Shown one piece after another: positions 17,589-46,599 of a DNA stretch of 64,000 nucleotides. The DNA lies in the NCBI GenBank assembly GCA_965219995.1, contig CBDCOX010000002.1, forward strand, positions 1,568,001 through 1,632,000. Reading direction: 5' to 3'. Position numbers and translations under genes: made by a program. The DNA is from Candidatus Latescibacterota bacterium (GTDB lineage: Bacteria; Latescibacterota; UBA2968; GCA-2709665). Position 1 is the stretch's first letter. Every line of letters starts with the position of its first letter. Below the pieces are notes generated by a model. That model was not told the origin of the DNA. It ran no database searches and saw only the letters and a list, made by a program, of their open reading frames with translations.

Positions 17589-17682
17589 CTCGAACGTTAT
17601 CACCACCTGCGACCCCGTGCATGCGGGGTGCGCGCAAGCGCCAGGCACAGAATGTCGTGCAACGCAAATGGACGTGATATAT
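17589..17682 (-). repeat. attC-like site with non-canonical R'' (ATATATC)
   Basis: Aligns with 57248-57392 at both arms; R' GTTCGAG. Confidence 0.7.
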
Positions 17683-17726
17683 TACGTGGGAATTCTCACT
17701 CAGTCAATTCTTTGCCGGTGTATTGC

Positions 17727-18623
17727 TCAGTTCGGGGCTTGCGCAAAAGACGCGACAGATGACGTGTACGCGTGGCCTCCCGCCTGCCTTCGCTTCTCAA
17801 GACTGCTATGAAGTTCGTTAGACTCCCAGTTCCCGCTCTCTGCCTCCTCACGCCACTTCATGTTGTATGTCTCTCGCTTGCAAACGTCCAGGTGCTTCGG
17901 GGCAAGCGTGAGCCACGTCTTCCCTGAAGTAACACATCCGAAACCGTTAACGCATGGCGAGTGCATGTAGAGCAGGTTCTTCGCCAGGTACGTCAGATAG
18001 TCTTCCGAACAGTACCTGGCTCCGTTATGACTCAGTTCGTCGTTGCAGTTGATGGTCTTGTGCCGGCAAAGTCGGTCCCTTGTCTCCCATGGATTCAGGA
18101 TCAGTCCGTCGGAGTCACACAGATACGCATTGTAAGAAGGGTCAACCATCACCCAATTCGAGAGAGTCGAACACCAAACCACCGTAACAACATGATTATC
18201 ATAGTCATACGGATTCAGAGGATTCAGAGATACCAATCTGCTCGGCAATCCCAGAGACAGGCAGGCTTCTGTCAGCACGATAGAAAGCATGTAACAGTTG
18301 ATGCCGTAGTCCTCGCCTTTGCCGAACGAATACCTCAGAAGTCCCGAAGCGTTCATGGGCAGGGATTTGCAGACTTCGGGCAGCGATTTGGTGATGTCGC
18401 CTCTGTGGCATACGCCCTCAGACATCCACTGCATCAAGTTCAGGACCCTGGACCATTCGTCTCCACCTCCGGCAATCCGATCAAGTCCATATACTTTGCG
18501 CAGGCGCTCGAGCTCTGGATGTGAGAGTTCATACTGGAAGCCAGGTGCCAACTCGTCCGGAAACGAATCAAACTCGTCAAATAGGCGTAAGAGCCCGCAG
18601 TATAGCCTGAACTGGTTATTCAT
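17727..18623 (-). CDS. transglutaminase-like domain protein
   Basis: GINC, NHVV, W..VDPS triad motifs. Confidence 0.85.
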   Translation of the reverse strand: MNNQFRLYCGLLRLFDEFDSFPDELAPGFQYELSHPELERLRKVYGLDRIAGGGDEWSRVLNLMQWMSEGVCHRGDITKSLPEVCKSLPMNASGLLRYSFGKGEDYGINCYMLSIVLTEACLSLGLPSRLVSLNPLNPYDYDNHVVTVVWCSTLSNWVMVDPSYNAYLCDSDGLILNPWETRDRLCRHKTINCNDELSHNGARYCSEDYLTYLAKNLLYMHSPCVNGFGCVTSGKTWLTLAPKHLDVCKRETYNMKWREEAESGNWESNELHSSLEKRRQAGGHAYTSSVASFAQAPN

Positions 18624-18664
18624 CGTTGCTTCCTCAAGTTATGTTGATTCTATCTTCCCATTTT

Positions 18665-18750
18665 ATATATCGTCCTCGCAGGCTGCGAACCTGCGAAGCG
18701 GGTTGAGCGAAGGCGCGAATACGCAGGAGCCACAGCCCGTCGTGTTATAC
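18665..18750 (-). repeat. attC-like site with non-canonical R' (GATATAT)
   Basis: R'' GTATAAC; family GCGAACC arm. Confidence 0.75.
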
Positions 18751-18763
18751 GATGGCGGCCTGA

Positions 18764-19110
18764 TCACGCGAAGCCCAGGAGGGCAATAGTCTTCATAACC
18801 TGGGTCGCCAGTACCAGCATGTGGTACACTTTTCCGCCTCCGCTTTCCTCAACGTCTACACAGGAGAACCCAATCTCACGAGCCGTCAGCAAGAAAGCTT
18901 CCGTGTTCCTGGTTAGACGGCGCGACGCGTGCATACGGTTACCCAGGACGGCGGGCATGGGAAGGTGCTGAAGAGCTTTTCAGTGACGTCTCCAGTCTGA
19001 GCAGGGCAAGGAGGTGTTATAGGAAGTGCCAAACCTGTTCCCTTACCACAGCAATCTCAATTCCGCACACATTCCCGCCAGACGGCTTTGAAAGGCTTTC
19101 CTGTGTAATT
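18764..19110 (-). pseudogene. degraded cassette ORF remnant
   Basis: Only a short C-terminal ORF (18764-18958) remains between two attC-like sites. Confidence 0.35.
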
Positions 19111-19139
19111 CCATCAGGTACGAATAGGTGCTCGATCTC

Positions 19140-19204
19140 GAGATGCGTCCACTCTTGAAAGTGACCTTCAAGCTCGGATTGGGAGCGGCAACAGGTTGTT
19201 ATGA
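19140..19204 (-). repeat. attC remnant (R'' half)
   Basis: GAGCGGCAACAGGTT-GTTATGA; matches R' GTTATGTGAAA at 20184. Confidence 0.55.
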
Positions 19205-19230
19205 GAAAGTTTCATCTCGGTCGGCTGCCG

Positions 19231-20148
19231 CTACTCGGGAGCCCCAAGTTCACGGAGTCTATCAATTTCCCGGTAGACCGCACGTTGTTCACGGTCCAGA
19301 GTGCCGTCCGGCCCGGTGCGCCATCTCTGACGCGCCAATGCATAACCCAAGGGCGTGACTTCCTTGATTTCGCTGCCTACATAACATCTCGCCCGCATGG
19401 ATAGATCCGGTCCGTGTCGCAGGAGACAATCGAAGGCTTCGTAGCAAGAGCCAAAGGCGCGCCCAATTGTGTGAAAGATGGGCGTCTGTTCACCGGTTCC
19501 ATCAAAGATGATCTGGGTACGTCGCCCATCATTCGTCTCATGGATCGGACCGATCGCATCAATGTCAGCTCCATAATTGAGCAACAGCTCCACGAACTCC
19601 GCATCGTTGTGGGCCGCAGCCACGTGAAGCAACGTGCCGCTGGTTGGTATGGCGTGCGAAGTGTCTTCGTGGATCTGGTGAATCAATAACGGGTCCCGTT
19701 GAATTCGCCGCTCAAGGGAACTCAAATCGCCGCGATGAATATCCATGTAGGGTCCATCTTCATAATCAGCTCCGGCGTCGATGAGAACATTCACGAATTC
19801 GTAACGCCACTGACCGGCAGAACCCAACCCGGCCATGAGTCCCGGATTGGGTCGCACGCCACGAGCGAGTAGACGCTTGACCTGCGCCATGTCCCGATTC
19901 CCAACGCAATGGGCAAGCGAGTGGTTCAGGAAATCAAGGTTTGCGCCCGCGGCTAATAGCGCATCAATGCTTCCCTGTTGATCGCGCGCATTTGCGTAAC
20001 GGATCGGCGTGATCAATCGCCGGCGTCCCTTGCTATCGGTCCATAGGAACTCCTGGCCGATCTGAGTTGGATCCCGATCCAGAAGTTCATTGATGCGCGA
20101 GATATCGCCTTTCTCAATGGCTCTCTTCAACGGATTATCGGTGCCCAT
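19231..20148 (-). CDS. ankyrin repeat protein
   Basis: TLLHVAA......VELLLNYGADID, TPI/TPL repeats. Confidence 0.88.
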   Translation of the reverse strand: MGTDNPLKRAIEKGDISRINELLDRDPTQIGQEFLWTDSKGRRRLITPIRYANARDQQGSIDALLAAGANLDFLNHSLAHCVGNRDMAQVKRLLARGVRPNPGLMAGLGSAGQWRYEFVNVLIDAGADYEDGPYMDIHRGDLSSLERRIQRDPLLIHQIHEDTSHAIPTSGTLLHVAAAHNDAEFVELLLNYGADIDAIGPIHETNDGRRTQIIFDGTGEQTPIFHTIGRAFGSCYEAFDCLLRHGPDLSMRARCYVGSEIKEVTPLGYALARQRWRTGPDGTLDREQRAVYREIDRLRELGAPE

Positions 20149-20525
20149 GCCTATTCGATGTTGTGATTTGGAATTTCACATAACTACGGTATTACCAAAC
20201 AGTTACGGTAATTTGTATCTGGTCGGAGGATCTGCGAACGTTCGATTACGTTGGCACTTATAGCCGAAGATGTTGCGGATCCCGGATCTTCTGTCAACTG
20301 ACTCGACCACGTGATTGTGGGCCACTGTCCAGGTCGCTTAAGCGGTCGTAGCGTCCCGGCTGCGCGAGGGTTTCCCACGTTATTCCCCTGCCCTGAGACG
20401 ACCCAATTCGATCACGGTCGGCATCGTCACCTCCCCCTTGGGACCCAATCCCGCAACCGTCCGGAAATTTCTCAACGCCTGACGTGTGGCCTCGCTTAGT
20501 TCACTGTCCACCAGCCCGGTACGAT

Positions 20526-21026
20526 TCACGCCTCATCAGCGCAGTCGTCCTTCTTCTCGTGGCGTAATGTGCGTTCAAGTTCTGCCAGGAATCCGCTCTC
20601 ACTAATAAATCCTGAAAATCCTCCGTAGTCGCTCAAGTCTGAACAGGCTGTCAGAATCGAATTTGCCGCCATATCACTGGATATCTTCGCTTTAATCCCA
20701 TTCAAATAAGATTCAAGATCCGGACGGTCCTGCAAAGCGCCTAACGCTCTGGGCCTGATTCCGGCGATTTCACGTTCCACGTCAATTCGCCATCCCTTAT
20801 GCTTGAGAAATGACCGAAACGCGATTTCCTCGGCTTTTTCCAGATGACCATCGATATAGAGCGTCATCACCGCAGCTTCAAGAAAGGCCAATTGTTCATC
20901 TGTCGTAAGCTTTCGCGGATCGATAATTGAGCGCATTCTGGAACTGAAGAGCTTAAAGAGAGTGCCTACGAGGATTGGTGCAAGAATGAAAATAGCTATC
21001 ACTGCAATTGAGTCATCTGAGAACAT
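20526..21026 (-). CDS. membrane-anchored TerB-like protein
   Basis: N-terminal TM helix, IDG.L..AE motif. Confidence 0.55.
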   Translation of the reverse strand: MFSDDSIAVIAIFILAPILVGTLFKLFSSRMRSIIDPRKLTTDEQLAFLEAAVMTLYIDGHLEKAEEIAFRSFLKHKGWRIDVEREIAGIRPRALGALQDRPDLESYLNGIKAKISSDMAANSILTACSDLSDYGGFSGFISESGFLAELERTLRHEKKDDCADEA

Positions 21027-21058
21027 CGATCCCCCTGCAACAGGTGTTTGTCCTATTT

Positions 21059-21137
21059 GTCTGACGTTCGGCGAACATACCGACGGCAAGTCGGGTGAGG
21101 GATGGGACGGACCGAGCCGCAAGTGCTGCCGTCACCC
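21059..21137 (-). repeat. attC-like site
   Basis: R'' GGGTGAC ... R' GTCAGAC; resembles 54789-54879. Confidence 0.6.
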
Positions 21138-21230
21138 GACGCCGGGACGATCGTGCTGCACTCCATGACGCCGAGGCCGCGAACCAGCGACATCCGCTAA
21201 TCGATTCAGCCCCGCGCGTTTCACATTGTT

Positions 21231-21857
21231 TCACATCATCAGGAAGTTCCTGCCATACTGATACGCGGTCTCGAGATTTCTTGCCCTGTTGCTCGATGTT
21301 GCAAAGTGATCCGCCATACCAGGGAGGAGCGCGAACTCACAATGCTTCACACCCGCGTCAGGGCGGAGGCGATCATGGGTGTATAACCGCCTCATGGCTT
21401 CAGCAATTCCAGTCTCTTCCAAACCTTCCAGAGTATTCCCCACCGGACAGAGAACGAGAGCCCTTTCGACTGAGAGTCGAGGAAACGGATAGGTCTCCCC
21501 GGCAAACTGGTACTCGTAGGCGTATCCGCAGACCCAAACCCGGTCGAACCATCCCTTCAGCTTTGCCGGACAATCGCTCCACCAGACGGGAAAGACAAAG
21601 GCCAGGCCGTCTGCCCTGCCGATCTTGCTGTGTTCGGCCTGCACGTCCAATGGTATGGGGAGAGTGGCGCGATTGCCCTGGACGTTCATCTCGCGAACGT
21701 ACTCATCCGGACTCATCTCGCATTTGAAGTCCATTTCATACAGGTCGCCGATCTCGTATGAATGCCCTCCGTCGTCGAGTCCTCGACACAACTCGCCCAA
21801 GACCTTCCCGGTAAAGGACCCTCTCGTCGGGTGCGCAAAGACGACGTATGCATGCAT
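21231..21857 (-). CDS. NAD(P)H:quinone oxidoreductase (flavodoxin-2)
   Basis: AHP...SF, FPVWW..CPA.LKGWFDRV. Confidence 0.9.
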   Translation of the reverse strand: MHAYVVFAHPTRGSFTGKVLGELCRGLDDGGHSYEIGDLYEMDFKCEMSPDEYVREMNVQGNRATLPIPLDVQAEHSKIGRADGLAFVFPVWWSDCPAKLKGWFDRVWVCGYAYEYQFAGETYPFPRLSVERALVLCPVGNTLEGLEETGIAEAMRRLYTHDRLRPDAGVKHCEFALLPGMADHFATSSNRARNLETAYQYGRNFLMM

Positions 21858-21986
21858 AAAAAGGTTCTCCGTCAAAAGCGGTGTGGGACACGCCGCCCAT
21901 GATTTTGATATCTATCCCCGGTTGGGCGTATCGACAATCCGTTAACTGACCCCTGATGCTCGGTTAAGGGTTCGCGCCGGCGACAT

Positions 21987-22859
21987 TCATCCTCCCATCA
22001 TGTCCGGTTGAGGAAGTCCAAGTTCCTGAATCGTCCACTCAAGACCTGTAATTAGATGCGCCCTCTGCAGTTTGCGAACCAACGTTGTATGAGGCAGGTC
22101 CGGCAACCCTGCACGCGAAGCGAAATAACCCGTAACGTACGACGCCAGGTGACCCGCGCCCGCAAGGATATCCCGTGGTGGCGGTCCACCCTCGTGGCGA
22201 AGGCCGGGCAGCCAAAAGGCAATGTCGAGGTCGGGATTGCCGGAGCAGGCGTTGTTCCAGTCGATCAATACAGCCCGGTCGGCGCGAAAGCAGATATTGT
22301 CACTTCTCACGTCAAGATGGACAAGCGCCTTGCCTTCCGGTTCAACGCGATCGTGCGCCTCCAGAAGGGTGGGTAGACACTCTGTCAACCACGATTCGCT
22401 TGCAACGCGTATCGACAGGAAGGCCTCGGGGTGCTCCGCAACGTCGTGCCAACCTCTATGGGCAAAGGCCTCGCGATATTCAGGCACACTCGCCTGGCTC
22501 CCATGTATCATTGCCAGGCTGTCAAGAACCATATCGATACCTGAGGTCGTCCAGGGCGGAGGCCATAGGTTCCCGGACAGATCCTCCAATATCAGCAACG
22601 GAGGTTCCTCCTCGTCCCACGCAAGAGCGGCCGCCATGAAATCGCCGGAAAGTTGGCGATAGATCGAAATCTCGGAATGTAGCCACCTACTGGTGCGCCG
22701 GTCCGTCGCACACTTCGCAAATGCCGTGTTTCCGTCCCGGAAATTTACGATTCTTCGGCAGGCGTTTGTGTAACCTCCCTGAACCGGTAGCAGCCGGTCC
22801 ACTTCTCGTCCGGTCAGATCCGCTATTCGCGATTCAAGTACTTCGCAGCTATAATCCAT
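21987..22859 (-). CDS. APH-like phosphotransferase
   Basis: LVHLDVRSDN, LIDW. Confidence 0.85.
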   Translation of the reverse strand: MDYSCEVLESRIADLTGREVDRLLPVQGGYTNACRRIVNFRDGNTAFAKCATDRRTSRWLHSEISIYRQLSGDFMAAALAWDEEEPPLLILEDLSGNLWPPPWTTSGIDMVLDSLAMIHGSQASVPEYREAFAHRGWHDVAEHPEAFLSIRVASESWLTECLPTLLEAHDRVEPEGKALVHLDVRSDNICFRADRAVLIDWNNACSGNPDLDIAFWLPGLRHEGGPPPRDILAGAGHLASYVTGYFASRAGLPDLPHTTLVRKLQRAHLITGLEWTIQELGLPQPDMMGG

Positions 22860-22880
22860 GGCCCGCCTGAAGGAGATAAC

Positions 22881-22990
22881 AGACAACGTGGCGCCGTATT
22901 GCGTACCTCGAAGGTGATTGAACAAGACCAGCGCGTCATCCGTCAAGCTAAGGACAGGCTTTGCCGCAAAGCGGAAGCCGGTTGTCAGTC
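22881..22990 (-). repeat. degenerate attC-like site with REP-like remnant
   Basis: R'' GACTGAC ... R' GTTGTCT; internal CAAGCTAAGGACAGG. Confidence 0.45.
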
Positions 22991-23012
22991 GGTATACGGG
23001 GTTTTGCGGAGC

Positions 23013-23633
23013 CTACCGGCAGGCCTTCGACAGCGGCTGGTCCTCAGACACCGTGATATACCTCCTCGGAATTGTGATCCCCTTGTCCTTTCTGATCGCC
23101 TGCACTCCCGGAGCGACGTGCCCTCCACGGTAATCCAAAACAGGAACCAGGGAGTGGACAGTCGCACGCACGACTTCGTGCCCCGTTCGACAGTCGTATC
23201 CGAGATCCATAGCCGGGCGCCCTCGCCTGGTTACATGCTTGCACTCGAAACCGTGCGCGTGATCGACGACATACAGACCGGGAAAATTAGACCGCACCTC
23301 TATCCGAAGCAGGTAGTCGCCCACGGCATGTCGTACCATTTCAAGTGGCAGATCGCCGAAATATGACCCGCTGAGCCATTTCGGGTCCGGCGACAGCAAG
23401 CCCTCAACAAAGAAACATCCCTCGAATTCCGGCGTCAGATCGGTCGCGAGAACCGGAAGCCTTGCCCGCAGGCCTCCCGAGTCCATAATCTCGTCGAGTT
23501 TGTTCCGGTGCGTGTAGTGGTAGAATACGACGTTGCCCGCGTCGGATTTCTCGATCCTGGCAGGATCGCCTTTGTACCCGAGGTCGGCCAGGAACGTCCC
23601 CCTGCACGTAAGAAAAGTCTCGCAGACTCTCAT
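23013..23633 (-). CDS. hypothetical protein
   Basis: 206-aa ORF; FYHYT......I...GGL motif. Confidence 0.7.
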   Translation of the reverse strand: MRVCETFLTCRGTFLADLGYKGDPARIEKSDAGNVVFYHYTHRNKLDEIMDSGGLRARLPVLATDLTPEFEGCFFVEGLLSPDPKWLSGSYFGDLPLEMVRHAVGDYLLRIEVRSNFPGLYVVDHAHGFECKHVTRRGRPAMDLGYDCRTGHEVVRATVHSLVPVLDYRGGHVAPGVQAIRKDKGITIPRRYITVSEDQPLSKACR

Positions 23634-23686
23634 TATGCCAAACCAGAATTCAAGATTGAAAAGGGATGGAAACTCCGGTGTATTGC

Positions 23687-23944
23687 TCAGTTCGGCGCTT
23701 GCGCAAAGGACTCGACGGATGACGTGTACGCGAGGCTTCCGGTCTGCATCGCATTCAAAACCTTCGACAAGTCGTCACCGCCTCCTGCGACCTGATCAAG
23801 TCGATATGCTTCGCGCAGCCGCTCGAGCTCAGGATGTGAGACCTCGTATTGGAAGCCTGGCGCCGACTCGTCCGGTAACGAATCAAACTCGTCAAACAAG
23901 CGTAAGAGCCCGCAGTTTAGCCTGAACTGGTAATTCATCGTCAC
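23687..23944 (-). pseudogene. internally deleted copy of transglutaminase-like gene 17727-18623
   Basis: N-terminal ~65 aa joined directly to the last ~14 aa; flanks also homologous. Confidence 0.9.
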
Positions 23945-23979
23945 TGCCTCAAGTTATGTTGATTCTCTCTTCCCACTTT

Positions 23980-24080
23980 ATAAATCGTTCATCCGTTACC
24001 GAACCCCGGGAGCACAGCGAAGTGGGTTGCCGGAGGCCAAGCCGCCACCGGCCCCGCAGCGCAACACCGTGCTGTTAGAC
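23980..24080 (-). repeat. attC site (R'' GTCTAAC containing stop codon; R' GATTTAT)
   Basis: Family core GGTTGCCGGAGGCCAAG...GCAGCGCAACACCGTGCTGTTAGAC. Confidence 0.85.
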
Positions 24081-25523
24081 GGTGTCGCCCCCTGCATTCA
24101 GATGCTGATCAGCAAATCTTTGGTAGACATCAGAGTCCGGTTTGCTCGCGCTGTGGAGCCAATTCACTGATGTCGCCATCATATAGGGACGCCACATTGG
24201 ACTTACGATTCCGTAATTTTGGAATATCGCGACTGGGAACTTGTAGTCGTGTGCGTCAGGGTTGGCCTTTCTCTGGACAAGCTGACGCGATCTGCGCAAA
24301 AACGTGTCCAGGCCAAACGCCTTCTTGCCATATGTGAACGCCAACTTCTCCGCTTCTTCAATTCCAGACCTGTCCTCTATCTGTTGCCTCATCTCTCGAC
24401 TTGGGAGCAGCGAGAACACTTCCTCCGTCGCGTCCTCACTCGATTCAATGCCTTCCTTCGGGGCAAGGTCCGTAATCTTCCTGTCCCGCAAATTCCCGTG
24501 TTCGTGCTCAATGCCAATAAAGTTCGCGACCCATCCCACCGCTTGCAACAGAACGAAGAGCCGAGTCGTCTGACTCACAGTATCCTCGAACGCATAGTGC
24601 ATCGCGTTGGCTACGGTATTCGAATGCAATGGACGCGTGTTAATGCCTCCGGATCCTGCGTATCCCCCCTGTTTATGTCGGTGCATGAACTCACCAGCCG
24701 AAAGGAAAACTGCGTCCCAGACTGCTCCGGCAGGCACCCCAGAATCGACTATCTGACTGTACGCCATATCAGTGGCGCGATCCATCTCGCCAGCGCGAAT
24801 CTCCGAAAGCAACTCCAAAGTGGAGGTCTCATCGAAGCCTGCTCTCACCCAATCTGGCGCCAAACTCGAAGCCCTCGTGGCTCGTTCCATGTTCTCTCGG
24901 TATGGTTGCGAATCCAAGTCCCCAACGCGAGACATCAGATCCGATACGATGAATCGAAGGATTGGCTCAGAGTAGTGCCATCCCACGGTTTGGAGACTTC
25001 GCCAACAATTAGCGACAGCTATGATCTTGTGGCCGATGAAGCCCCATTCCTTCGCCCCATAGTGCCAGAGTTCCTCGATAATGTCACGCGGGCTCCACGA
25101 CCTACTCAGCCCAATCAGGGATCGCTCGGCTCGCCCTTGATCCCAGGAGTCCATCGCTTCTCTGAATTCCAGCAATGCTTTATCGCCCGTTGGGTATACG
25201 CCTTCCAGAGCGTCACGTGGCGGCTTTGCGTAATTCTCTTGAGCCCTCTTCAGGCTGTCGAGACCCCAAAAGACAGGGATGAGTCGATCTGCCCCAACTG
25301 AATCCAGGCTCATCTGATGAGCGGAATAAACCAGATACACTTCGTGATGCGTGCCTTCACAGGAACTGGCGGCAACCAGTAGGGCTGCAAGTGCCTGCCT
25401 GTACGTGAGCCCCTTTCTGAACTCGTCGGCAAGCATCTCAACCGCTCCTTCACGCGGCACATCTATCATTCGCTTGACAATGGGCTGAAGAGCCTCGCTC
25501 AGCTCTGTATGTCGTAGCGTCAT
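24075..25523 (-). CDS. hypothetical helical protein (482 aa), intact cassette
   Basis: GAGG RBS; His-rich motifs (GHK.I, LHSNT, HDYK); bounded by 16/17 complementary termini. Confidence 0.8.
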   Translation of the reverse strand: MTLRHTELSEALQPIVKRMIDVPREGAVEMLADEFRKGLTYRQALAALLVAASSCEGTHHEVYLVYSAHQMSLDSVGADRLIPVFWGLDSLKRAQENYAKPPRDALEGVYPTGDKALLEFREAMDSWDQGRAERSLIGLSRSWSPRDIIEELWHYGAKEWGFIGHKIIAVANCWRSLQTVGWHYSEPILRFIVSDLMSRVGDLDSQPYRENMERATRASSLAPDWVRAGFDETSTLELLSEIRAGEMDRATDMAYSQIVDSGVPAGAVWDAVFLSAGEFMHRHKQGGYAGSGGINTRPLHSNTVANAMHYAFEDTVSQTTRLFVLLQAVGWVANFIGIEHEHGNLRDRKITDLAPKEGIESSEDATEEVFSLLPSREMRQQIEDRSGIEEAEKLAFTYGKKAFGLDTFLRRSRQLVQRKANPDAHDYKFPVAIFQNYGIVSPMWRPYMMATSVNWLHSASKPDSDVYQRFADQHLNAGGDTV

Positions 25524-25553
25524 GGGTTCACCTCATACCTATTGGGCGATACC

Positions 25554-25645
25554 GTCTAACGTCTCGCCGGTTTGCGAACAGCGAAGGTGGTTGCCCAAGG
25601 CAAAGGCGATAGTAGCCGTCGCAGCGCAACACCGTGCTGTCAGCG
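25554..25645 (-). repeat. attC site
   Basis: R'' CGCTGAC ... R' GTTAGAC; family core. Confidence 0.85.
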
Positions 25646-25682
25646 GACGTGGCATCCTGGTCGGGCCTTACAATGCAGACCG

Positions 25683-26291
25683 CTATTCAGACAGAAACCG
25701 TTGCCAGCGATGACCCTCGGGATACAAGACTTCCAACCCGGCTCCCAACCATCTCTTTGCCTCGGCGGACATCAGCGGCAGGCAGGTCTGAAAGTCCAGG
25801 TCATCTTTCGAACGAGGATTCTTGGCTTTGTGCAGAAGCTGGACCTCAATCCGTATACAGGGAACACTCCCGTATGCAACGATCAAGTCGCCTCGCTGCC
25901 CGCCAATCAGTCTGCTGCGCTTGCTGAACCACCTGTCGCCTTCGCTTTCGGTCAACATGATCTGAAGCTGCCATACCTGTATGCCGGCATGGCCCCATAT
26001 GTCATGTATCCCGTAAGGCAAGTATTCTGATTCGGCCCATGGTCGCAATGAACCGGGCGGATCGGCCGCGTACAGATGCCAATCCGAGAGCCAGCGCTTT
26101 ACCTCGAGTTGTTGATCCCGGTACACGATGACGTCAATATCACCGTGGTCCCGTACACGGGTTCCCACGAACTGCTCTACCGCATGGCCGCCGGCGAGTC
26201 CCCACATGAAAGGAGCGTTGGCGAACAATTTCGTCAACTCCTTGACGGACAAGGGTTTCCATTGGCTGAAGGGAATCTCAGGAGTGGTCAT
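25683..26291 (-). CDS. nucleotidyltransferase (ANT(2'')/LinA-like fold)
   Basis: LAGG.A......R.HGDID, KD..DF motifs. Confidence 0.85.
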   Translation of the reverse strand: MTTPEIPFSQWKPLSVKELTKLFANAPFMWGLAGGHAVEQFVGTRVRDHGDIDVIVYRDQQLEVKRWLSDWHLYAADPPGSLRPWAESEYLPYGIHDIWGHAGIQVWQLQIMLTESEGDRWFSKRSRLIGGQRGDLIVAYGSVPCIRIEVQLLHKAKNPRSKDDLDFQTCLPLMSAEAKRWLGAGLEVLYPEGHRWQRFLSE

Positions 26292-26439
26292 ACAGTTCGC
26301 ATTCTGCGCACAAACGACGTCCGCTAATGCGCGAGCATTGCGGACGCAGCACCTTGTCGATCAGTGTATGAGATTCCTGGTACTCAGTCAACGACTCTCG
26401 CAGGTCCGTTTGGGCGAAGTGACGAAGGAGCGGAGAATC

Positions 26440-28254
26440 TTATAGATCTTCATTCGGCATCTGCGGATGTTGGGCAGGAAAGAGCGCATCCAGGAGCTCT
26501 GCCGCATCTCCTGTAAACAACATGCCCAACCGTTCGGCAATTTCACCAGGTGGTTCTTTTCCAATGATGATTTGTGCAAACTCATGACCACATTCAATGG
26601 TGTTTTCTGCTTTGCCGCCGGGCTGCACAGAGATTTCACTGTTGTCGATGGATAGCACTGCAGACTGGTCCGGGATAGAAATCTTCAATGTGCCCATGAA
26701 ATCTCCGAGACCCGATTTTCGTATACGTCGAGACAGTTCAGGTGCGATCTTACTCAGCGTCGTCTCCAGGTTGATGATGCGAATCTGGTTCCCCGTCCGA
26801 CCATTGTGGTTTCTGGCTGAATAAAGATGAGGCAACTGTCGCACGCGTCGTGCCAGCGCGCTGCGCCAGGGGAGTCGGACGAATTGCACCCTGGGTCCCT
26901 GGTATTGCCGGGCAAGTTGCCCTAAAACGCGCAGGATCTGTTCCGGATCACCGGCTGAATCCGTATGACGCAGGTCGCGTCCCTCGTGATCTTTCTCTGT
27001 ATTCGGGCCATCGTAGAGATAACCCACCGCACGTCCGGTTTTATCGTTGAAAATGTACGCTGTCCACGGATCGTCGTCTTCCGGCGGGCATTTGCCTCTT
27101 CGGTATGTTGGACGGACGGTCGTGCCGGTCAATCCGTCGTGCCATCGATTGTGAAGTTCGGCCAGGTCTCTGCGCCCGTGAATCACGTTGACATGTACTT
27201 CCTCCAGCTCTATTTCCGGCGCTGCTTCAGGCAGGTGCTCGGTGTCTATAAAATACGTCTCCTGATCCGGCCAGGCAAGCACGTAGCCGAAATTCGCAAA
27301 GCGATCGAGCGGTTCGGTACGTGTACACGACATATCATAGCCATGGGCATACATGGCGTCCAGCGCCGCCTGAATTGTTGCCGCGTAGATCCCCTCATCC
27401 CGATAGTCGGGATGCACGGTCGGCAGATTGATGCCCCCGGTCCGGACTGTTGCGCTGCCGATGCGCATCGACAGATCGTAAATGCCCGCGTGCGTGACCA
27501 CATCACCATCCATCGTTCCGATCCGCGACGTCAGCCAGTCGTAGTGACTGTGCGCGATGCGTCCTGCGCGACACTGACGGCTGATGGCGTTCCAGCGCCT
27601 ATCCAGCAACTCATAGATATCTTCGCTATGATCCGCTTTATCCGGCGCCAGGATTTCTCGCACACGGTCAATGAACCGCTCGTCCCGCGAAGGCCGGTTC
27701 TCATGTATATTGTCCTTCACCATATCGAATAGCCTTTCCTTGAGCCGTTTCCGCGCCGACCGCAAACGGTTCTTCACGACGGCGACTGACACACCCAGAA
27801 AAGCGGCCACTTCCCGCTGTGAATAATCCGAAATGTAGAACAAAGACACGGCCTGACGTTCGGTTTCGGGCAATGTGTCGATCGCTTCTCGCACAAGGCA
27901 CCGCATCTCGTTTTCTTCTGTTGTCCGATCCGGATGCCGGTCTTCCGATGCGATCTCGACAAGCTGTTCCATGGATACGATCTCGACCTTCTTTCCCCGG
28001 CGCGTGATCCGATCGCAATATTTGAACACGATCCTGCGCAACAGGGCAGGAAAAGCAAAGACATCGTACACGCGCTCCAGATTCACCCAGGCCTCTGTAA
28101 ACGCCTCCTGCGCCGCGTCCTGCGCCAGGTGAAAATCCCTCAACAACGCGAATCCGTATCCCACGGCGAGATCCTGGAAGTGTGTCACAATCTGCTCGTA
28201 GGCCTTCAGATCTCCTTGCTTCGCGCGTTCGAATATCGGTTTCAGTGTCTCCAT
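26440..28254 (-). CDS. ECF sigma-70 factor fused to Eis-like GNAT/SCP2 domains
   Basis: AQDAAQEAF, S..EVA.FLG......KNRL..AR; C-terminal GGI....VHPDYR.EG. Confidence 0.85.
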   Translation of the reverse strand: METLKPIFERAKQGDLKAYEQIVTHFQDLAVGYGFALLRDFHLAQDAAQEAFTEAWVNLERVYDVFAFPALLRRIVFKYCDRITRRGKKVEIVSMEQLVEIASEDRHPDRTTEENEMRCLVREAIDTLPETERQAVSLFYISDYSQREVAAFLGVSVAVVKNRLRSARKRLKERLFDMVKDNIHENRPSRDERFIDRVREILAPDKADHSEDIYELLDRRWNAISRQCRAGRIAHSHYDWLTSRIGTMDGDVVTHAGIYDLSMRIGSATVRTGGINLPTVHPDYRDEGIYAATIQAALDAMYAHGYDMSCTRTEPLDRFANFGYVLAWPDQETYFIDTEHLPEAAPEIELEEVHVNVIHGRRDLAELHNRWHDGLTGTTVRPTYRRGKCPPEDDDPWTAYIFNDKTGRAVGYLYDGPNTEKDHEGRDLRHTDSAGDPEQILRVLGQLARQYQGPRVQFVRLPWRSALARRVRQLPHLYSARNHNGRTGNQIRIINLETTLSKIAPELSRRIRKSGLGDFMGTLKISIPDQSAVLSIDNSEISVQPGGKAENTIECGHEFAQIIIGKEPPGEIAERLGMLFTGDAAELLDALFPAQHPQMPNEDL

Positions 28255-28560
28255 CTCGCTCCTCTGATTATGAAGGCCTTCACCGGTAATATCCCAATTG
28301 GGGTGGATTGGGTGTACTTATCCTATGTATTTTGGTCTCCTGAGAGGAACAGGAAGATCGCAAAATATTAATAAACAATGGTTTAAAAGATTCCAAAAGA
28401 CGAACGCCACATTGTGCTATTCGATGATATTGGGCCTGCCCGGAGAGTGTTCGGGGCTGGCAGTCGGAAGGAAATGAAGGGAGGGCCTAAAAAGGCTGGG
28501 TTGTTGGGGATTATTGTCAATGCCTGTTATATGTCGTCTTTTTCAGGGCGGTCAAATGTC

Positions 28561-28661
28561 GGCCTGCATTCCCGCCACTTGCTAACCCGCCCGGCTCTAT
28601 TGGCCGGGCTGCCCGCGGGACCAGGGCGAGAATGGGCCGCAGCGGCAACAAGCTGTTACAC
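28561..28661 (-). repeat. attC-like site (R' degenerate)
   Basis: GCCACTTGCTAACCCGCCCGG arm as in 57248; R'' GTGTAAC. Confidence 0.7.
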
Positions 28662-28696
28662 GATTATGATTCACAACCGACACCGGATGGTGCCAT

Positions 28697-29464
28697 TCAA
28701 GTCGGCCTTTCCTTTTGCGCTTCGATCAGGAATTTCCTTGCCGTAAACGTCAACTCATCGCCGCCATCAAGTCGATGTTGCAGGCTTAACAGGTGCTGCA
28801 TGTGGGTTTCGACTGAAAACCCGGGTACCAGCCAGGGAACAGCCTTCAAGTAATAGACCACGGCGCCCACGTCGGCGAAAGCCAGCCGGCCAGACCATTC
28901 TTCGGCAGTGAAAATGGTCAGGCCCGTCGTTCTCAATTGAGTCACAACCCTTTCAAGTGTGGATCCGGGCCATTGCGGTTTAACGTCAAACGCTGCCAGT
29001 AAGTCACAGGCCCATAACCCGTGAACCTGCTGTGTCAGGAACGTGCCGCCAGTCGTGAGAATACGGGCAACTTCATTAGGGTTGAATGCAGAGTGGCGAT
29101 TTAGAACAAGATCAAACTCGCTATCGGGAAAAGGCATCGGATCGCAATCAGTCAATCGAACATCTGCAACTTTCGCTCCCAACGGAACGAGACGATTTGT
29201 TGCCAACTTGAGGTGAGGTGCATATTCCTCCTTCGCCACAACCTCTTCAGGCCAGAATTCCTGTAAGTTCAGGAACCGCTCACCACCACCTGTACCCAGG
29301 TCAATGACAGATGAACAACGACGCAAGAGCTCGGCAGCCCGTAAAGAATAAGACCATGGCGTCTTCTCTTCGAACATCCTGCCATCCAGCCAGGAAAAGT
29401 CCCATCCCGAGAAAGGCTGTTCTTCTTCACCCTTCCACGTATCAACAAGCTTGTCCAAGCCCAT
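28697..29464 (-). CDS. class I SAM-dependent methyltransferase
   Basis: IDLGTGGGE, FDLV.NRH, GG.FLTQQV. Confidence 0.9.
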   Translation of the reverse strand: MGLDKLVDTWKGEEEQPFSGWDFSWLDGRMFEEKTPWSYSLRAAELLRRCSSVIDLGTGGGERFLNLQEFWPEEVVAKEEYAPHLKLATNRLVPLGAKVADVRLTDCDPMPFPDSEFDLVLNRHSAFNPNEVARILTTGGTFLTQQVHGLWACDLLAAFDVKPQWPGSTLERVVTQLRTTGLTIFTAEEWSGRLAFADVGAVVYYLKAVPWLVPGFSVETHMQHLLSLQHRLDGGDELTFTARKFLIEAQKERPT

Positions 29465-29678
29465 ATTGCACGCTATCCGTGAACATCGAAGGCCAAATTA
29501 TCGTTCAGGCACTCGTTTTACGTGTTGTGCATTCCCGCAGCCGCGAATCGATTAGGCGAGGGGAATGCCCGAAGTAGAAAACGCTGCTGTTACGCCACGT
29601 GGAAAAATCGAAAACATAGCCCACTCCGGTGATTCGCTTTCTTGAGGTGGCGACTTTGTTGGCAGTGTTTCACATCAC

Positions 29679-30433
29679 TCATCCAGGTCTGGTTGGTAAC
29701 TTATCTGCCATGTCCGATATCACGCTGATGCAGAGCCCCATAAGATCCTGAGCGCTTTCCACATCATACCGAGCCTCCGGATGTTGAGTTGGGTTCCGGT
29801 ATTCCACCCTCACTAGGTCGAGCGTGTCCAAAAGGTTCGCTGGAGGCTTGTTCCGTGACTTAGACCTTAGCGCGTAAACCATTGCCCCCACGTTGGATTC
29901 TCAAGGCGATTCCGTCGGATGTGGAGCCGGTAGTAGGTTCGCAATACATCCTCGGTCGCCCGGAGCCAGTGAAACGCAGCAGCAGTGCCTTCACCAAAGA
30001 GGACGCATCGACCAGCACTCCCGATATCGAATTGGGCTAGGTCAGGCAGCTTCTGAAAGACGCTGTCGCGAAAGAACTTGGCCGGCTCGTTGAGTAGCCA
30101 GGTGGTGTTATATCTTCGTTCTGGCAATATGTAGATGGACTTCGTTCTGGACTCAGCGAAGATGATCTGTTCAAGGATCGCGATGTTCGCAACAATGTCC
30201 TTGGCTCTGGGCCCGAGCAACTCAGTTGGTTCGCACTCGGAAAGCTCTGTCTTGATAGCAATTAGCTTGGCCATTCCACTGATTGACACGGTGAGGCCAG
30301 CGCCCACGATCTGTCGCTCAAGAGCTGTGATGTTCCGAACCGCATAGTCGATGTCGTTGGACGCACTGGTATGGCGAAGGTGCCTAATCAATAGACCCAC
30401 ATGAATCAGTGAGTAACTGTTTCTTGATTCCAT
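29679..30433 (-). pseudogene. HEPN/DUF4145-like protein, frameshift in G5 run at 29885-29889
   Basis: AAAFH..RA.E helix and RNPTQH (RxxxxH) split across two ORFs. Confidence 0.6.
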
Positions 30434-30497
30434 GTAATCCTCACGCTTTACGCTGGATCGGTTAAGAACGAAAACGGTGTTAAAAGAAGATCGATCG

Positions 30498-31439
30498 CTA
30501 TTCAAGACTCTCGATGTGAGGCTTTAGCGAAGAGACGAAGTTGCCCATTGCTGTAATCATGACATCCTGTATGTGAGGCCAATTGTCTTCTTCAGATTTC
30601 AGCCCGCCTTCTTCAATGACATGTCTTACCCTCGAAGCTCTTCGCTGATCCAGCCGCTCCCATTGAAGCTCCCGTCCAAACCGCTTTTCAATTTGCTCGC
30701 GCTTTGCCGCCAGCGAATCGAAGTGTCGCTTGTTCTTCTCGCCGTCGCCGGTGTCGATATAGAGTTCAACAGCTGTCCTGTGCTTTAGCCAGACCACATA
30801 ATTGAAGGAAAGACCTGACTTGCCTGCCCCGGCGCCGATCCAATGTTCTTTAGTGGGCGATCTAGAACTGTGGATGGCAACGCCATGGCTCTTGGCACGT
30901 TCCAGCAACTGTTGCCAGAATCTGATTCTAAGATGATGTCGCTCTGCAAGATCCTTCTTGGATTGACCGATGGACGTTGGCTCCTCACTAGGTCCAACAA
31001 TCACGGTGAAGAGCGGCGCGGGGTCTGAATTCCCAATCTGAAAGGCTGTCAGCTTCACCAAATAGAATGCTGTATCGGGTGGAGTCGACTCGTTCAACCA
31101 GGCGATTGCTCTTGCATGTTCTGGTCGAGCGTGACTGGTGATCCAGACCGCGGTTTTCGCATTTATATTTGAAAGATAAGTAAGAACTTGCCCAAGGTGC
31201 TTGTGATCCGTCTGTTCAATTTGGTTTTCGATCACAACCACCTCACCGCTACCATCCTCGGCAACCAGATCGATCTCGAAATCCCCCGCAGATTTCTCTT
31301 TCTGGACTTCGGCAAGTCTGATGTCGAGCTTATCAGCCAGTACTTCGATGTTTTGCTCTAGCCACTGGGAGAAACCTCGTTCTTCATTCTCCCACACTTT
31401 CCGTAGCGGCACCTCATCCAAATTTCCAATACGTGTCAT
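30498..31439 (-). CDS. DUF4268 domain protein with N-terminal PD-(D/E)xK-like domain
   Basis: IDLVAE...VVIENQ....DH.HLGQ; FW..L, W.RL....ASR. Confidence 0.85.
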   Translation of the reverse strand: MTRIGNLDEVPLRKVWENEERGFSQWLEQNIEVLADKLDIRLAEVQKEKSAGDFEIDLVAEDGSGEVVVIENQIEQTDHKHLGQVLTYLSNINAKTAVWITSHARPEHARAIAWLNESTPPDTAFYLVKLTAFQIGNSDPAPLFTVIVGPSEEPTSIGQSKKDLAERHHLRIRFWQQLLERAKSHGVAIHSSRSPTKEHWIGAGAGKSGLSFNYVVWLKHRTAVELYIDTGDGEKNKRHFDSLAAKREQIEKRFGRELQWERLDQRRASRVRHVIEEGGLKSEEDNWPHIQDVMITAMGNFVSSLKPHIESLE

Positions 31440-31693
31440 CTGTTGAAGCTCCCCCCTTGTAGTTTGGATTACGTAACCTCAGACTTTGTCGTGATTCTTC
31501 GGTCACTTCGATATGGCCAACTAGAACACGGCAAGAATGCGGAAGTTCTCTAACAATTCAGGCCTACCCTATATATACCCATCGTATCGCGTAAAAGGAC
31601 GGTACGCCGTCCGCGTTCAATGAAAGCTTCCACAAGTTCACCGCCATTCGGTGTAGAAATGCCGGGGAAGGCGTCCAAAACACGGCGACAACA

Positions 31694-32172
31694 TTAATCA
31701 TTTCCGCCGATCGTTACATCGTTCGTGCCCTGCACCCAGCCCTGTACCAACGGCAGTTTCATACGAGCCATCGGGGCGGCGTCGGTAGTGTCACGGATCG
31801 CCCCAGTCAGGCCACCCATGATCGGCATAATGGAGCCACCTGGCCTACTGTTCGTCCAGCAGTGCGTACAGGGTTGAATTCCATCCGCCAATCGTACCGA
31901 GCCGACCATTGTCTCAATTGGAGTTCGACTCAATCAATGTCCCGGATCGTTGCGGAAGCAGTGGACACTTTCTTGAGTACCTCAGTTAGCTCCAACGCGT
32001 CGGACTCATAGGCGACCCATAGGCAGTGTTCGCCCAGTCTCGGGATGGCGAACCACCGCTGCGTCTCTGGGCAATCGATTTCGTCTATCTTCTCAGCACT
32101 CTCGAGTATTGTGACATCGGGCCTTGTCAGAGGAAACGGATGATTTGCTATCATACCGTTTTCGAGAATCAT
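31694..32172 (-). pseudogene. fragmented hypothetical gene
   Basis: Two short adjacent ORFs (79 and 80 aa) overlapping by 4 nt. Confidence 0.35.
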
Positions 32173-32358
32173 GGCTTTCTCTCGGATGACTTGGCGAAAC
32201 TTCAGGCCACTTCACACGTTGCGAAATTTGTACTCGTGACAAGGCACAAGACATTTGTGCGGCCGCGACGCCCGCGCTCGCCGGTTTGAGGGGTCGGGAT
32301 GGTGTTGGTAACGCGGTCGTGGTGTTACATCTGAAGTTGGCGATTGCACTGAAACTTG

Positions 32359-33303
32359 CTATCTGGGTACCTCACCCAAGTTGTCGGAAACATCAAGACG
32401 ATCGCTTACGCGTTGGGCCGCCATCGAAATCGCTTCGGCAACCGCTTGGGTGCCCTGCCCCGAGAGATTGGGGAATGCAGAGACGGCGAGGTAGCGATCT
32501 AGGTGTCCCCACAAGTGTCGTAAGACTTCTTGGCCGTAGGTCGTTAGTGAGACTATGATGTCTGGAACCATGCAGAGTTCGTACCACATCAGTTCGAATT
32601 CGCTGAAAAATGGATCAGTTATCCTGCTACCCCAGCATTTGACAACACATCGATGGATGAATTCATAGGCTTCTGAGCCTATCGTTATGCCGCCATTGTC
32701 CCCAGCCATTCTAACCACTTCCGCGACTCGACACAGACGCAACTCAAGATAAGTCGCAGAACGGTTGGTGCAGGCTAACAGAAATTCTATTCCGGATATA
32801 TGCCCTTGCCTAACTGGAAGGATCGCCTTCTGAAAGCCAAGGAGTGTGTCATCGACGGATGGGAGAACTGTATCGTCACGCGCCAGCTCTAAGAGATCCT
32901 CTCGAGCACTTTTTTCGAAGTAGGAATCCCTACGCAGTAAAATTGGCCCTTCGTTCGCCAGCTGATGCTTGACCCTAGCATAGATCGTTAGATCCTCGGA
33001 TGGATCGTGAAGAATGAGGACGACTGGAAGATTTAGGCGTTGCCAGTATCGCCTATGCCTCTTGCTTGGGTAGTACTTGACGTGCATTGAGTTACTTTGA
33101 CGGAAGTAGCTTTCACCTGACTTGACCTGAACTGCGATAATGGATCCCGTACTGACTGCAGACTCGGGCGCAAGGAATTCGACCTGTCCGTCGATTCCCA
33201 GATCGGAGCTTGGCGTAGCGCGCCATATCGCGTCCATCTCCGCACAGACAGAGTGGACTTTCGCAAGCCCTCTATGTTCTTGAGTAACATTGCTGGGCCG
33301 CAA
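32359..33303 (-). CDS. DUF4365 (PD-(D/E)xK) domain protein
   Basis: DLGIDGQVE, VQVKSG, YW..LNLPVVL. Confidence 0.8.
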   Translation of the reverse strand: MRPSNVTQEHRGLAKVHSVCAEMDAIWRATPSSDLGIDGQVEFLAPESAVSTGSIIAVQVKSGESYFRQSNSMHVKYYPSKRHRRYWQRLNLPVVLILHDPSEDLTIYARVKHQLANEGPILLRRDSYFEKSAREDLLELARDDTVLPSVDDTLLGFQKAILPVRQGHISGIEFLLACTNRSATYLELRLCRVAEVVRMAGDNGGITIGSEAYEFIHRCVVKCWGSRITDPFFSEFELMWYELCMVPDIIVSLTTYGQEVLRHLWGHLDRYLAVSAFPNLSGQGTQAVAEAISMAAQRVSDRLDVSDNLGEVPR

Positions 33304-33394
33304 AGGGTGAAGATCCTTGTTTTAATGGTGGGCGCTGCTTAGCAGAATCGGACAACCCTCCAAGCTCCAGCCACATACCGTTCTCGCCAATTTT

Positions 33395-33420
33395 AGGTGA
33401 CGTCCCGCGCACTTGCGAAC
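33395..33420 (-). repeat. attC remnant (R' half)
   Basis: AGGTGAC-GTCCCGCGCACTTGCGAAC; partly matches R'' at 32324. Confidence 0.5.
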
Positions 33421-33440
33421 TCAGGTCTTTCAGCGCTTTG

Positions 33441-33764
33441 TCATGTTTTTTTTAACTCTGCTATTACTTCGTTGATATAGCGCAGTCTAAATCTTTCAAA
33501 TCTATCAAGAACATAACAATCAATTGGTCTTACCTCATATGAAGGCATCCTTAGGAGTTCATCGAGCAACTGATCTCTGCTTGCAAGGAATAGCTTCCCA
33601 TACAGATAGCCATATACACACGATTTCGCTAGGTGTTCATCGTAAAGGAATTCATAATTGGGATTGAATTTGATTTTTTCCTTGATTTCTTTGCAGTAGT
33701 TTTCTGCGTCTTGGGCACGAAAACGGTATATGCTGCTGATTTGATCTTTGTCCCATTGTTCCAT
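33441..33764 (-). CDS. low-GC hypothetical protein
   Basis: AT-rich ORF MEQWDK..., AAGGA RBS. Confidence 0.6.
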   Translation of the reverse strand: MEQWDKDQISSIYRFRAQDAENYCKEIKEKIKFNPNYEFLYDEHLAKSCVYGYLYGKLFLASRDQLLDELLRMPSYEVRPIDCYVLDRFERFRLRYINEVIAELKKT

Positions 33765-33985
33765 CGTGAAGTTCCTTTCTTCTTCAATGGAATTGTTCCG
33801 CTGCGAGAAGGGATAGAAGCTGCGAACCTTCCCCTCCACGGACATTCCGACTGTTTCGGGACGCTCCCCGATGATAGCGACTACAGCGAAGATCGGCGGT
33901 TTGTGTCAGGACGAAATTACGATGGGTTGCAGCAGCAACAGGCTGTTACATTACGATGATTTCCAATCGATACAAACGGAGTCTT

Positions 33986-34597
33986 TCAAGTTTGCCCCAC
34001 CTTCTGCGCTTCGATCAGGAATCTCCTTGCTGTGAACGCCAACTCATCGTCGCTATCAAGTCGGTGTTCTAGCCCCATCAGCGGCAGGCACGTCTGAAAG
34101 TCCAGGTCATCTTTCGAACGAGGATTCTTGGATTTGTACAGAAGTCGAACCTCAATCCGTATACAGGGAACACTCCTGTATGCAACGATCAAGTCTCCTC
34201 GTTGCCCGTCATTCAGCCTGCTGCGCTTGCTGAAACACCCGGCGCCTTCGCCTTCAGTCAACATGATCTGAAGCTGCCACGCCTGTATGCCGGTATGGCC
34301 CCAGATGTCATGTATCCCGTACGGCGAGTATTCTGACTCCGCCCACGGCCGCAATGAGCCGGATGGATCGGCCGCGTACAGATGCCAATCCGAGAGCCAG
34401 CGCTGTACGTCGATTTGCTGATCGCGAAACACGATGACGTCGATATCACCGTGGTCCCGAAAACGCTTTCCCACGAACTGCTCAACCGCATAGCCACCGG
34501 CGAGTCCCCACAGGAAAGGAGCGCCAACGAACAATTGCGTCATTTCCCGGACGGATAGAGGCTGCCAATTGCTGTAGGGAATCTCAGGAGTGGTCAT
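33986..34597 (-). CDS. chimeric nucleotidyltransferase with methyltransferase C-terminal tail
   Basis: Paralog of 25683-26291 up to CLPLM, then matches the C-terminus of 28697-29464. Confidence 0.85.
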   Translation of the reverse strand: MTTPEIPYSNWQPLSVREMTQLFVGAPFLWGLAGGYAVEQFVGKRFRDHGDIDVIVFRDQQIDVQRWLSDWHLYAADPSGSLRPWAESEYSPYGIHDIWGHTGIQAWQLQIMLTEGEGAGCFSKRSRLNDGQRGDLIVAYRSVPCIRIEVRLLYKSKNPRSKDDLDFQTCLPLMGLEHRLDSDDELAFTARRFLIEAQKVGQT

Positions 34598-34627
34598 AAA
34601 GTTCGCATTCTGCGCGTGAAAGATGTC

Positions 34628-34719
34628 CGCTAACGTGACTCACGATATGCGATCCTGTGAAGCAGGTTGCCGAGGGCCAAGCCGCCGAAGGCGGCGAAGC
34701 GCAAACCAACGCGTTAGAA
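34628..34719 (-). repeat. attC site
   Basis: R'' TTCTAAC ... R' GTTAGCG; family core GGTTGCCGAGGGCCAAG. Confidence 0.85.
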
Positions 34720-34735
34720 GACGTGCGTAAAGCAT

Positions 34736-37813: not shown

Positions 37814-38355
37814 CTAACAGCTCCCACGAGGCTGTCTTCGGATCATAGGCCCAGAGATCGTTCAGCTTGATCTCCCCCTTTCCGGGCCCACGCACCGAGG
37901 ACCCGCCGAAAAGGTAAAGCCTGCCGTTCATTGGCAGCCAGGTCGTGAGCTTCCGGGTGCACGGTCTGGTATCGGACGGTCTGAACCCGATGCGCCCATT
38001 GTGGTCTTCCAACCGCGTCCACCGGCCTCGACCCGGGTCGTAGCGCCACAGGTCGTTCAATGAGCCCTGGACGGAAAGATCTCCAGGCCCTTTCGGCCGG
38101 CCGTACATCACTTTTATCCCGCCGAACAGGTAGACGCATCCATTGTAGCTCAACATCCCGCCGAAGGCCGCCCGCCTGCAGGGTACATCCTCGGCCTGCT
38201 CCTGGTCCGGATACAGCAGTTCCCACTTCATAGTGGACCTCCGCACCGCCTGACTTGTGATTCTGCGGAGAAAGTTCGGCATATTCCATTCGTAGCCGAT
38301 CCCCGAGTCGGCGAAGCGACGAGTCCCGCAGATAAGTCCCGCAACGGGCGCATGC

Positions 38356-46579: not shown

Positions 46580-46599
46580 GATGACGAGAGAATTCCACC

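Follow-up and report, generated by a model that had tools for sequence, protein, structure and literature searches.

The 64,000-nucleotide stretch of DNA analysed here (hereafter the window; positions 1,568,001 to 1,632,000 of the forward strand of contig CBDCOX010000002.1, assembly GCA_965219995.1, Candidatus Latescibacterota bacterium) contains most of a large array of gene cassettes and their attC recombination sites. The array is approximately 70 kb long, lies on the minus strand at window positions 17589..64000, and continues for about 23 kb past the end of the window. Nearly all of the long open reading frames (ORFs) of the window are on this strand, and the gaps between them contain imperfect palindromes with RYYYAAC-like and GTTRRRY-like ends. 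Metagenomes containing the stretch are of sponge, coral and marine types. The subject of this report is the cassette of a 298-amino acid, weakly transglutaminase-like protein, which carries GAT and ATC at its two ends where sister sites have GTT and AAC. We consider, with a probability of roughly three in four, that this is an ordinary integron-type cassette belonging to a natural, compensated and historically used GAT/ATC lineage of attC sites in an array without an integrase.

When a cassette is circular, its attC hairpin is closed by pairing between the R'' and R' boxes. Integration cuts R' after its G, so that the 5' end of the cassette carries along the other six bases of this box and the sequence outside them. 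The GTT/AAC triplet of these boxes is regarded as an invariable hallmark of attC sites, and detection models incorporate it. The ORF of the transglutaminase-like cassette (17727..18623, minus strand) matches Pfam PF01841 with an E-value of 2.9e-4 and 21.5 bits (cut-off 23), and its product had no match in NCBIfam or among PDB sequences. The attC of this cassette (17589..17682, minus strand), the last of the array, folds as a hairpin and was detected by nhmmer with E-values of 1.4e-05 genome-wide and 1.7e-08 on the locus. Its boxes are ATATATC (R'', 17682-17676) and, in the array, the canonical GTTCGAG (R', 17595-17589). At its 5' end the cassette reads G|ATATAT, which together with the outer arm occupies 18655..18671 on the minus strand, the G being that of the attC upstream (18665..18750, minus strand; nhmmer E 1.5e-13), which has GTATAAC as R'' and the hybrid GATATAT as R'. 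When compared with the consensus RYYYAAC (R'') and GTTRRRY (R'), the second position of the triplet differs on both sides, and the invariant G/C and the purine/pyrimidine pattern are kept only in part by ATATATC/GATATAT.

Three 17-mers reported in an initial annotation of the window are found at this cassette and at a second copy of it: GATATATTACGTGGGAA on the plus strand (17676..17692), GATATATAAAATGGGAA on the minus strand from 18671, and GATTTATAAAGTGGGAA on the minus strand from 23986. The first of these is the reverse complement of R'' together with the 10-nt outer arm upstream of R''. GATATATTACGTGGGAA and GATATATAAAATGGGAA differ at three of 17 positions, giving the 14/17 match that had been described. 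Allowing up to three mismatches, the motif has three matches in the window compared with 0.03 expected from 100 shuffles, and a degenerate version with one mismatch had no matches in the 5.4-Mb genome beyond these three (control matches, 0). A scan of metagenomes with the 17-mer pattern (15 fixed bases) matched at least 120 stretches; since none of the 80 loci fetched carried the attC family or the gene, and the collection is very large, these matches are due to chance.

Alignment in register bore out the proposal that the GAT cores sit exactly where sister sites have GTT/AAC. The R'' box ATATATC is in register with GCATAAC, CACTGAC and ATTTTTC of sister sites, all followed by the common ACGT/ACAT and CCA(C/T)TTGCG (spacer and L box). 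The R' box GATATAT (18671-18665) comes after ..GAGGAC, as GTT elsewhere comes after ..GAGAAC, and the R' box GATTTAT upstream of the second copy (23986-23980) is in register with GTTAGAC (25560-25554) of a sister attC. The latter site (25554..25645, minus strand) has CGCTGAC as R'', and its R' is complementary to the R'' of the next attC at 7/7 positions. An alternative register with the core GTGGGAA/TTCCCAC, 10 nt further out, was ruled out; identity between contexts begins at G|AT, and the sister sites place R' there.

As crossover in the cassette model takes place after the G of R', R'' ATATATC is expected to pair with the start of its own cassette. The two are complementary at 7/7 positions in this genome (G000) and in two related ones, G008 and G013, and the change is thus compensated, as had been claimed. 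One point has to be corrected, namely the in-array R', which is the canonical GTTCGAG. When the circular forms were rebuilt, a GTT control cassette folded as expected and the top-strand fold of the GAT cassette gave the expected stem, but its bottom-strand fold took a shifted register (see below).

The second copy of the cassette (23640..23986, minus strand) is a remnant that keeps the 5' end, the first ~66 codons and a 3' fragment of ~60 nt; it has an internal deletion of ~660 bp and no attC of its own. Behind it is fused a 206-amino acid ORF (23013..23633, minus strand) which lacks a Pfam match, an arrangement also found in the related genome G010. Starting from the G of GAT the two copies can be aligned without gaps at 195 of 230 positions (85%), and it is here that their high identity begins: only seven of the 20 bases before the G match. 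The attC upstream of copy 2 (23980..24080, minus strand; R'' GTCTAAC, hybrid R' GATTTAT; nhmmer E 3.9e-09), the 5' half of which resembles the sister at 25554-25645, is a different site from that upstream of copy 1, in agreement with the initial annotation. Ordinary duplication had been named there as a possible source of the second copy. Since the copies are only 85% identical, and copy 2 has a full-length ortholog in G010 flanked by the same neighbours on both sides, it did not arise by recent duplication.

Homologs of the 298-amino acid protein were found in 14 other genomes, 13 of them with full-length copies (82–90% identity) and one, G028, with a truncated copy. These comprise 10 of the 14 genus-mates and four of the 21 genomes from a genus that belongs to a different family. 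Among 16 homologous loci, with both copies of G000 included, the 5' junction reads GAT in 12, GTT in one (G003), GGT in one (G044) and AAT in one (G014), and one (G002) has no homologous 5' end. Outside G000, GAT is kept at 10 of 14 loci, so that the homologs do not all carry GTT. An attC detected by nhmmer adjoins 11 of the 16 loci, and the L' arms just before the junction are of five unrelated types, that is, at least five different attC sites lie upstream. The bases before the 5' end of the cassette and those after R'' vary between contexts, with no duplicated target. Among the 14 Latescibacterota copies in the protein tree, all supported subclades include GAT; the GTT, GGT and AAT tips are single, two of them with GAT sisters, and the copies of the second family are nested among those of the first. 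On this tree GAT is the ancestral state of the transglutaminase-like cassette.

A further cassette in G008, for an unrelated 286-amino acid protein (best pairwise E-value to the 298-amino acid protein, 0.051), starts with GATATAT and has R'' ATATATC on the same attC type, and ATC R'' boxes are also present on other attC bodies. The GAT/ATC state is thus a property of an attC lineage rather than of a gene. Its retention at 12 of 16 loci, behind at least five upstream attCs, in two families, and at the ends of an unrelated cassette indicates that the site was used in recombination. A homolog from a Stygiobacter metagenome-assembled genome (68% identity) looks, on inspection by eye, like a cassette whose ends are GTT and AAC. 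The Chitinophaga and Stygiobacter homologs (L047 and L048; 66–68% identity) possess an N-terminal extension with an RR-x-FLK motif, which we take to be a twin-arginine signal; the cassette copies are without this extension.

A home-made nhmmer profile was seeded with 13 attC sites picked by eye. Searched against the genome at E ≤0.02 it matched only at C2:1585587-1650016 (window 17587 onward), and one weaker match (E 0.51) extends the span of the array to C2:1655164; 17 matches lie in the 90-kb stretch searched. No attC family match was obtained in an Rfam scan of the window (0 matches), a strict RYYYAAC...GTTRRRY regular expression matched the minus strand only twice, being too strict for this attC family, and a generic inverted-repeat finder was of no use on bulged hairpins. 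The profile was then iterated over the 80–90 kb that surround the gene in six members of the genus, G000 (window 17589-64000), G008, G009, G010, G013 and G014 (loci L050-L069). Of the 123 matches obtained, R'' could be read in register in 115 and R' in 116. Neighbouring sites separated by under 4 kb formed 80 pairs, 71 of them non-redundant, more distant pairs and unreadable boxes having been dropped.

The cassette model holds for this family. Comparison of the R' of one site with the R'' of the next in the 71 pairs gave complementarity at 7/7 positions in 20 pairs, 6/7 in 10, 5/7 in 18, 4/7 in 14, 3/7 in six and 2/7 in three; the mean of 5.21 is to be compared with 4.29 ± 0.10 for shuffled partners, and none of 2000 shuffles reached it. 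The outer arm was analyzed in the 36 pairs with R-box complementarity of at least 6/7 (from 77 pairs, non-redundant by a stricter key). The start of the cassette matches the reverse-complemented flank of R'' up to position 17 and falls to background at position 18, with a mean of 6.89 matches in the 12 positions following the R box compared with 3.95 ± 0.26 on shuffling. As this is true of GTT cassettes as well, the 17-nt inverted repeat is not special, and it is unnecessary to regard it as the end of a transposon. Position 11 matches in only one of the 36 pairs; in 27 the start has A where the partner has G, so the 14/17 match of the 17-mers includes a mismatch which is typical of the family. 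This would give a G.T wobble on the bottom strand and an A.C mismatch on the top strand, and the asymmetry may be a feature of strand choice.

The second core position never mismatches in these 36 pairs, 32 having T/T and four A/A there; at the third, 34 have T/T, one C/C and one T/C. A census of the non-redundant boxes of the six arrays yielded, for R' (n=103), GTT 74, GTC 10, GTA 6, GAT 6 and others 7, and for R'' (n=98), AAC 73, GAC 10, ATC 4 and others 11. The canonical GTT/AAC is therefore carried by 72–74% of sites.

The array consists of tandem cassettes on one strand whose content differs between relatives. Profiles TIGR02249 and PF00589 revealed no integron integrase in the genome; the only two tyrosine recombinases were named XerD and XerC by NCBIfam. 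The ORFs upstream of the first attC lack a recombinase domain, and tblastn of the genome with the IntI of a genome of the same family found the Xer genes only, with no intI pseudogene detected. Searches for IntI were likewise negative in all 14 genus-mates and in the 21 genomes representing the second genus which holds the cassette; it is present in five other genera of the class. Near the IntI of the same-family genome G017 the attC family has one weak match, 22 kb away, and no cognate integrase could be identified in this manner. The intI gene and attI site which adjoin the array in a complete integron are missing, and there are at least two attC sites with no intI nearby. The array is accordingly a CALIN, a cluster of attC sites lacking an integron integrase. 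In two of the related arrays, those of G008 (L050-L053) and G013 (L058-L061), blocks with 98–99.9% identity are shared in different order, and the cassette studied here is found on opposite sides of a shared neighbouring cassette.

Published work on integron integrases bears directly on the GAT core. Frumerie et al. (2009; PMC2811028) state that all integrons characterised until then had the same conserved triplet. They report that with IntI1 a T2->A2 change accompanied by the complementary change raised the recombination frequency, such compensated sites recombining no less often than wild type, and that they underwent cleavage in vitro (Frumerie et al. 2010, PMC2811028); GAT is cited there as a preferred secondary site in earlier reports, and T3->C3 sites are described as not cleaved by IntI1. 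For IntI1, IntI2 and IntI3 the consensus of genome insertions is given as GWT by Loot et al. (bioRxiv 10.1101/2022.09.11.507474). Taken together, the IntI1 data on compensated T2->A2 sites and the GWT consensus mean that a GAT/ATC attC needs no unusual integrase. A narrow search of the open-access literature found no natural attC sites with GAT cores.

We would explain the locus as follows. The 17-mers mark both termini of a gene cassette of the ordinary integron type, the inverted repeat being an R box plus the 10-nt outer arm which is common to the whole attC family. The stem ATATATC/GATATAT stands in place of RYYYAAC/GTTRRRY through a T-to-A change at the second core position and the complementary change in R''. 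The GAT/ATC state would have had a single origin in an attC lineage and have then served in repeated rounds of site-specific recombination, with crossover presumably between G and A. By analogy with IntI1, the enzyme would have been an ordinary integron integrase acting in an ancestor, in a donor or in trans, and the array of this genome would now be a relic, or serve as a passive reservoir, while its other cores decay.

Several observations weigh against this explanation. The cognate integrase is not at hand, and its activity on the GAT site is inferred from IntI1 data. In G001 the gene is followed by the same attC body, of which the R'' region mismatches the GAT start, and the cassette of G003 starts with GTT. 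For the rebuilt circular GAT attC, folding of the bottom strand to minimum energy gives the shifted register TATCAC/GTGATA and not ATATATC/GATATAT. The attC sites were found with an nhmmer profile grown from seeds picked by eye, and not with IntegronFinder, and the six arrays are from kin genomes, so that the pair counts overstate independence. The junctions of circular forms called for in the initial annotation were sought in the contigs of four public runs over 16000-21000, and neither these nor an empty site were found; rare forms are invisible in contigs. Lastly, with 26–28% of cores in the six arrays being non-canonical, a loosening throughout the lineage is possible. The same contigs provided two incidental observations: one X1 contig carries a junction of the copy-2 type, and one X19 contig joins 16959 to 18840, skipping 1880 bases including the cassette, with 21 letters on the short side, which makes it unreliable.

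Such loosening is the basis of the strongest of the alternatives, which is close to what the initial annotation had proposed: a lineage-specific integrase with a core specificity looser than that of known integrases built the arrays, accepting GAT, GTC, GTA and others, and the variant cores are its footprint. The variants in the census, including GTC, GTA and GAT among the R' boxes and GAC and ATC among the R'' boxes, are in its favour, as is one cassette of G008 with GTC at both ends (GTCGCAC and GTCACAC, 6/7). We nevertheless regard it as unlikely. No integrase was found in this genome or its genus to carry the property, and for GAT, in the light of the IntI data quoted above, no loosening is required, IntI1 itself accepting the compensated change. 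The GTC/GAC cores which had been thought to point the same way are indeed present at 21059, 25639, 46486, 49067 and 60238. They comprise an R'-like GTCAGAC (21059..21065, minus strand), picked by eye and not detected by nhmmer; the R'' CGCTGAC of the sister attC described above; R' GTCGTAT (46486..46492, minus strand) of the attC at 46486-46590; R' GTCAGCC (49067..49073, minus strand); and R'' CACTGAC of a hybrid attC (60238..60244, minus strand). Wherever the partner is readable those of the window are uncompensated, and this also applies to most such cases in the arrays: the cassette following GTCAGCC has GGCTAAC as its own R'', which leaves the C uncompensated, and the partner start of CACTGAC is GTAAGGC, a mismatch. 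These cores, of a kind (T3->C3) which IntI1 does not cleave, look like decay and lend no weight to relaxed specificity. The R'' ATTTTTC of G000 at 63162 likewise has a decay-like appearance, reading ATTTAAC with the same flanks in G010.

A bolder proposal starts from the large arrays of two genera of sponge-associated Latescibacterota, which differ from species to species and share cassettes across families although no integron integrase is encoded. These arrays may still be undergoing exchange, the recombinase being either provided in trans or an enzyme other than IntI, for example Xer. It would read the 17-bp outer stem with its bottom-strand G.T wobble at position 11 and require of the core only G-W, GAT/ATC then being one allele of a wider natural core code. 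To this we would give an outside chance.

Mobilisation in these integrase-less genera without any IntI, either by XerC/XerD acting on folded attC hairpins or by homologous recombination between conserved parts of attC sites after DNA uptake, might be considered on the grounds that XerC and XerD are the only tyrosine recombinases of the genome, that the shared blocks of G008 and G013 have been reordered, and that the cassette is common to two families, both without IntI in the genomes searched. It seems to us very unlikely. Direct evidence for it is lacking, the location of the junctions at precisely one base, next to unrelated arms, is in keeping with integron-type site-specific recombination, possibly in IntI-bearing donors, and other genera of the class do possess IntI. 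Still less credible, and largely refuted, is the idea that the array is dead and that GAT and ATC are chance substitutions which were never used. Although the missing integrase, the many non-canonical and hybrid attCs and the deletion in copy 2 are what decay would produce, three species conserve two complementary changes that lie 1 kb from each other, an unrelated cassette carries the same GAT/ATC pair, the tree has GAT as the ancestral state, and the junction is at the same base behind five attC types. That the 17-nt repeats are the ends of a small transposon or miniature inverted-repeat transposable element (MITE) carrying the gene can hardly be entertained, for although they form a 14/17 terminal inverted repeat around a single gene, end-to-end complementarity of equal length exists in the GTT cassettes of the family (36 pairs), the repeats are in register with R boxes, the gene is not a transposase and is the only gene between the repeats, the flanks vary between contexts without target duplication, and the motif occurs only at the three array sites of the genome.

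The locus resembles known attC sites (59-base elements) and cassettes in having imperfect palindromes with outer R''/R' and inner L boxes, ORFs in one orientation separated by these sites, and crossover after the G of R'. It differs in the A/T swap at the second core position of this lineage (GAT/ATC), in a stem which reaches some 10 bp past the R boxes and has, at position 11, a constant asymmetry of A versus G, and in having no linked intI or attI. CALIN, which Cury et al. (2016, PMC4889954) describe as common, are likewise defined by two or more attC sites without intI, here neither nearby nor in the genome. According to the same paper 83% of them have fewer than six sites, whereas the present array is very large, at ~70 kb, and the intI-less state is genus-wide (0/14 relatives with IntI). 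The base change and its complement are those of the engineered T2->A2 attC/attI1 mutants (PMC2811028), and GAT falls within the GWT of the attG genome sites (bioRxiv 10.1101/2022.09.11.507474). In contrast to these laboratory constructs and double-stranded genome targets, the present sites are a natural and inherited attC lineage.

Since the same change is already active with IntI1, the locus adds nothing new on mechanism. Its significance is that a tolerance measured in the laboratory has been used in nature, in a GAT/ATC lineage which was inherited and repeatedly recombined, and this suggests that core-anchored detectors may under-call such cassettes. Of greater interest to specialists may be the surroundings, namely very large integrase-less arrays throughout a genus, cassettes distributed across two families, and a long, strand-asymmetric outer stem.

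Some minor features of the array remain to be described. The hybrid attCs at 60161-60244 and 23980-24080 have L'' and L' halves derived from different sister types and pair poorly, which suggests recombination or deletion in the conserved central part. The triplet ATG occurs at positions 11–13 of 34 of the 103 non-redundant R' sites; as a cassette start codon it was ruled out, an ORF of at least 60 codons beginning at only six of the 34. In the transglutaminase-like cassette this ATG (window 18661-18649) opens only a three-codon frame ahead of the real ribosome-binding site and start. A well-scoring attC (54789-54879) lies inside a mechanically predicted ORF of 602 amino acids (54036-55844), which is probably not one gene. 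The R'' ATTTTTC (window 63156-63162), with its ATTTAAC counterpart in G010, also has a similar ATTTAAC site in G008, there with different flanks, and is probably the product of a local double substitution.

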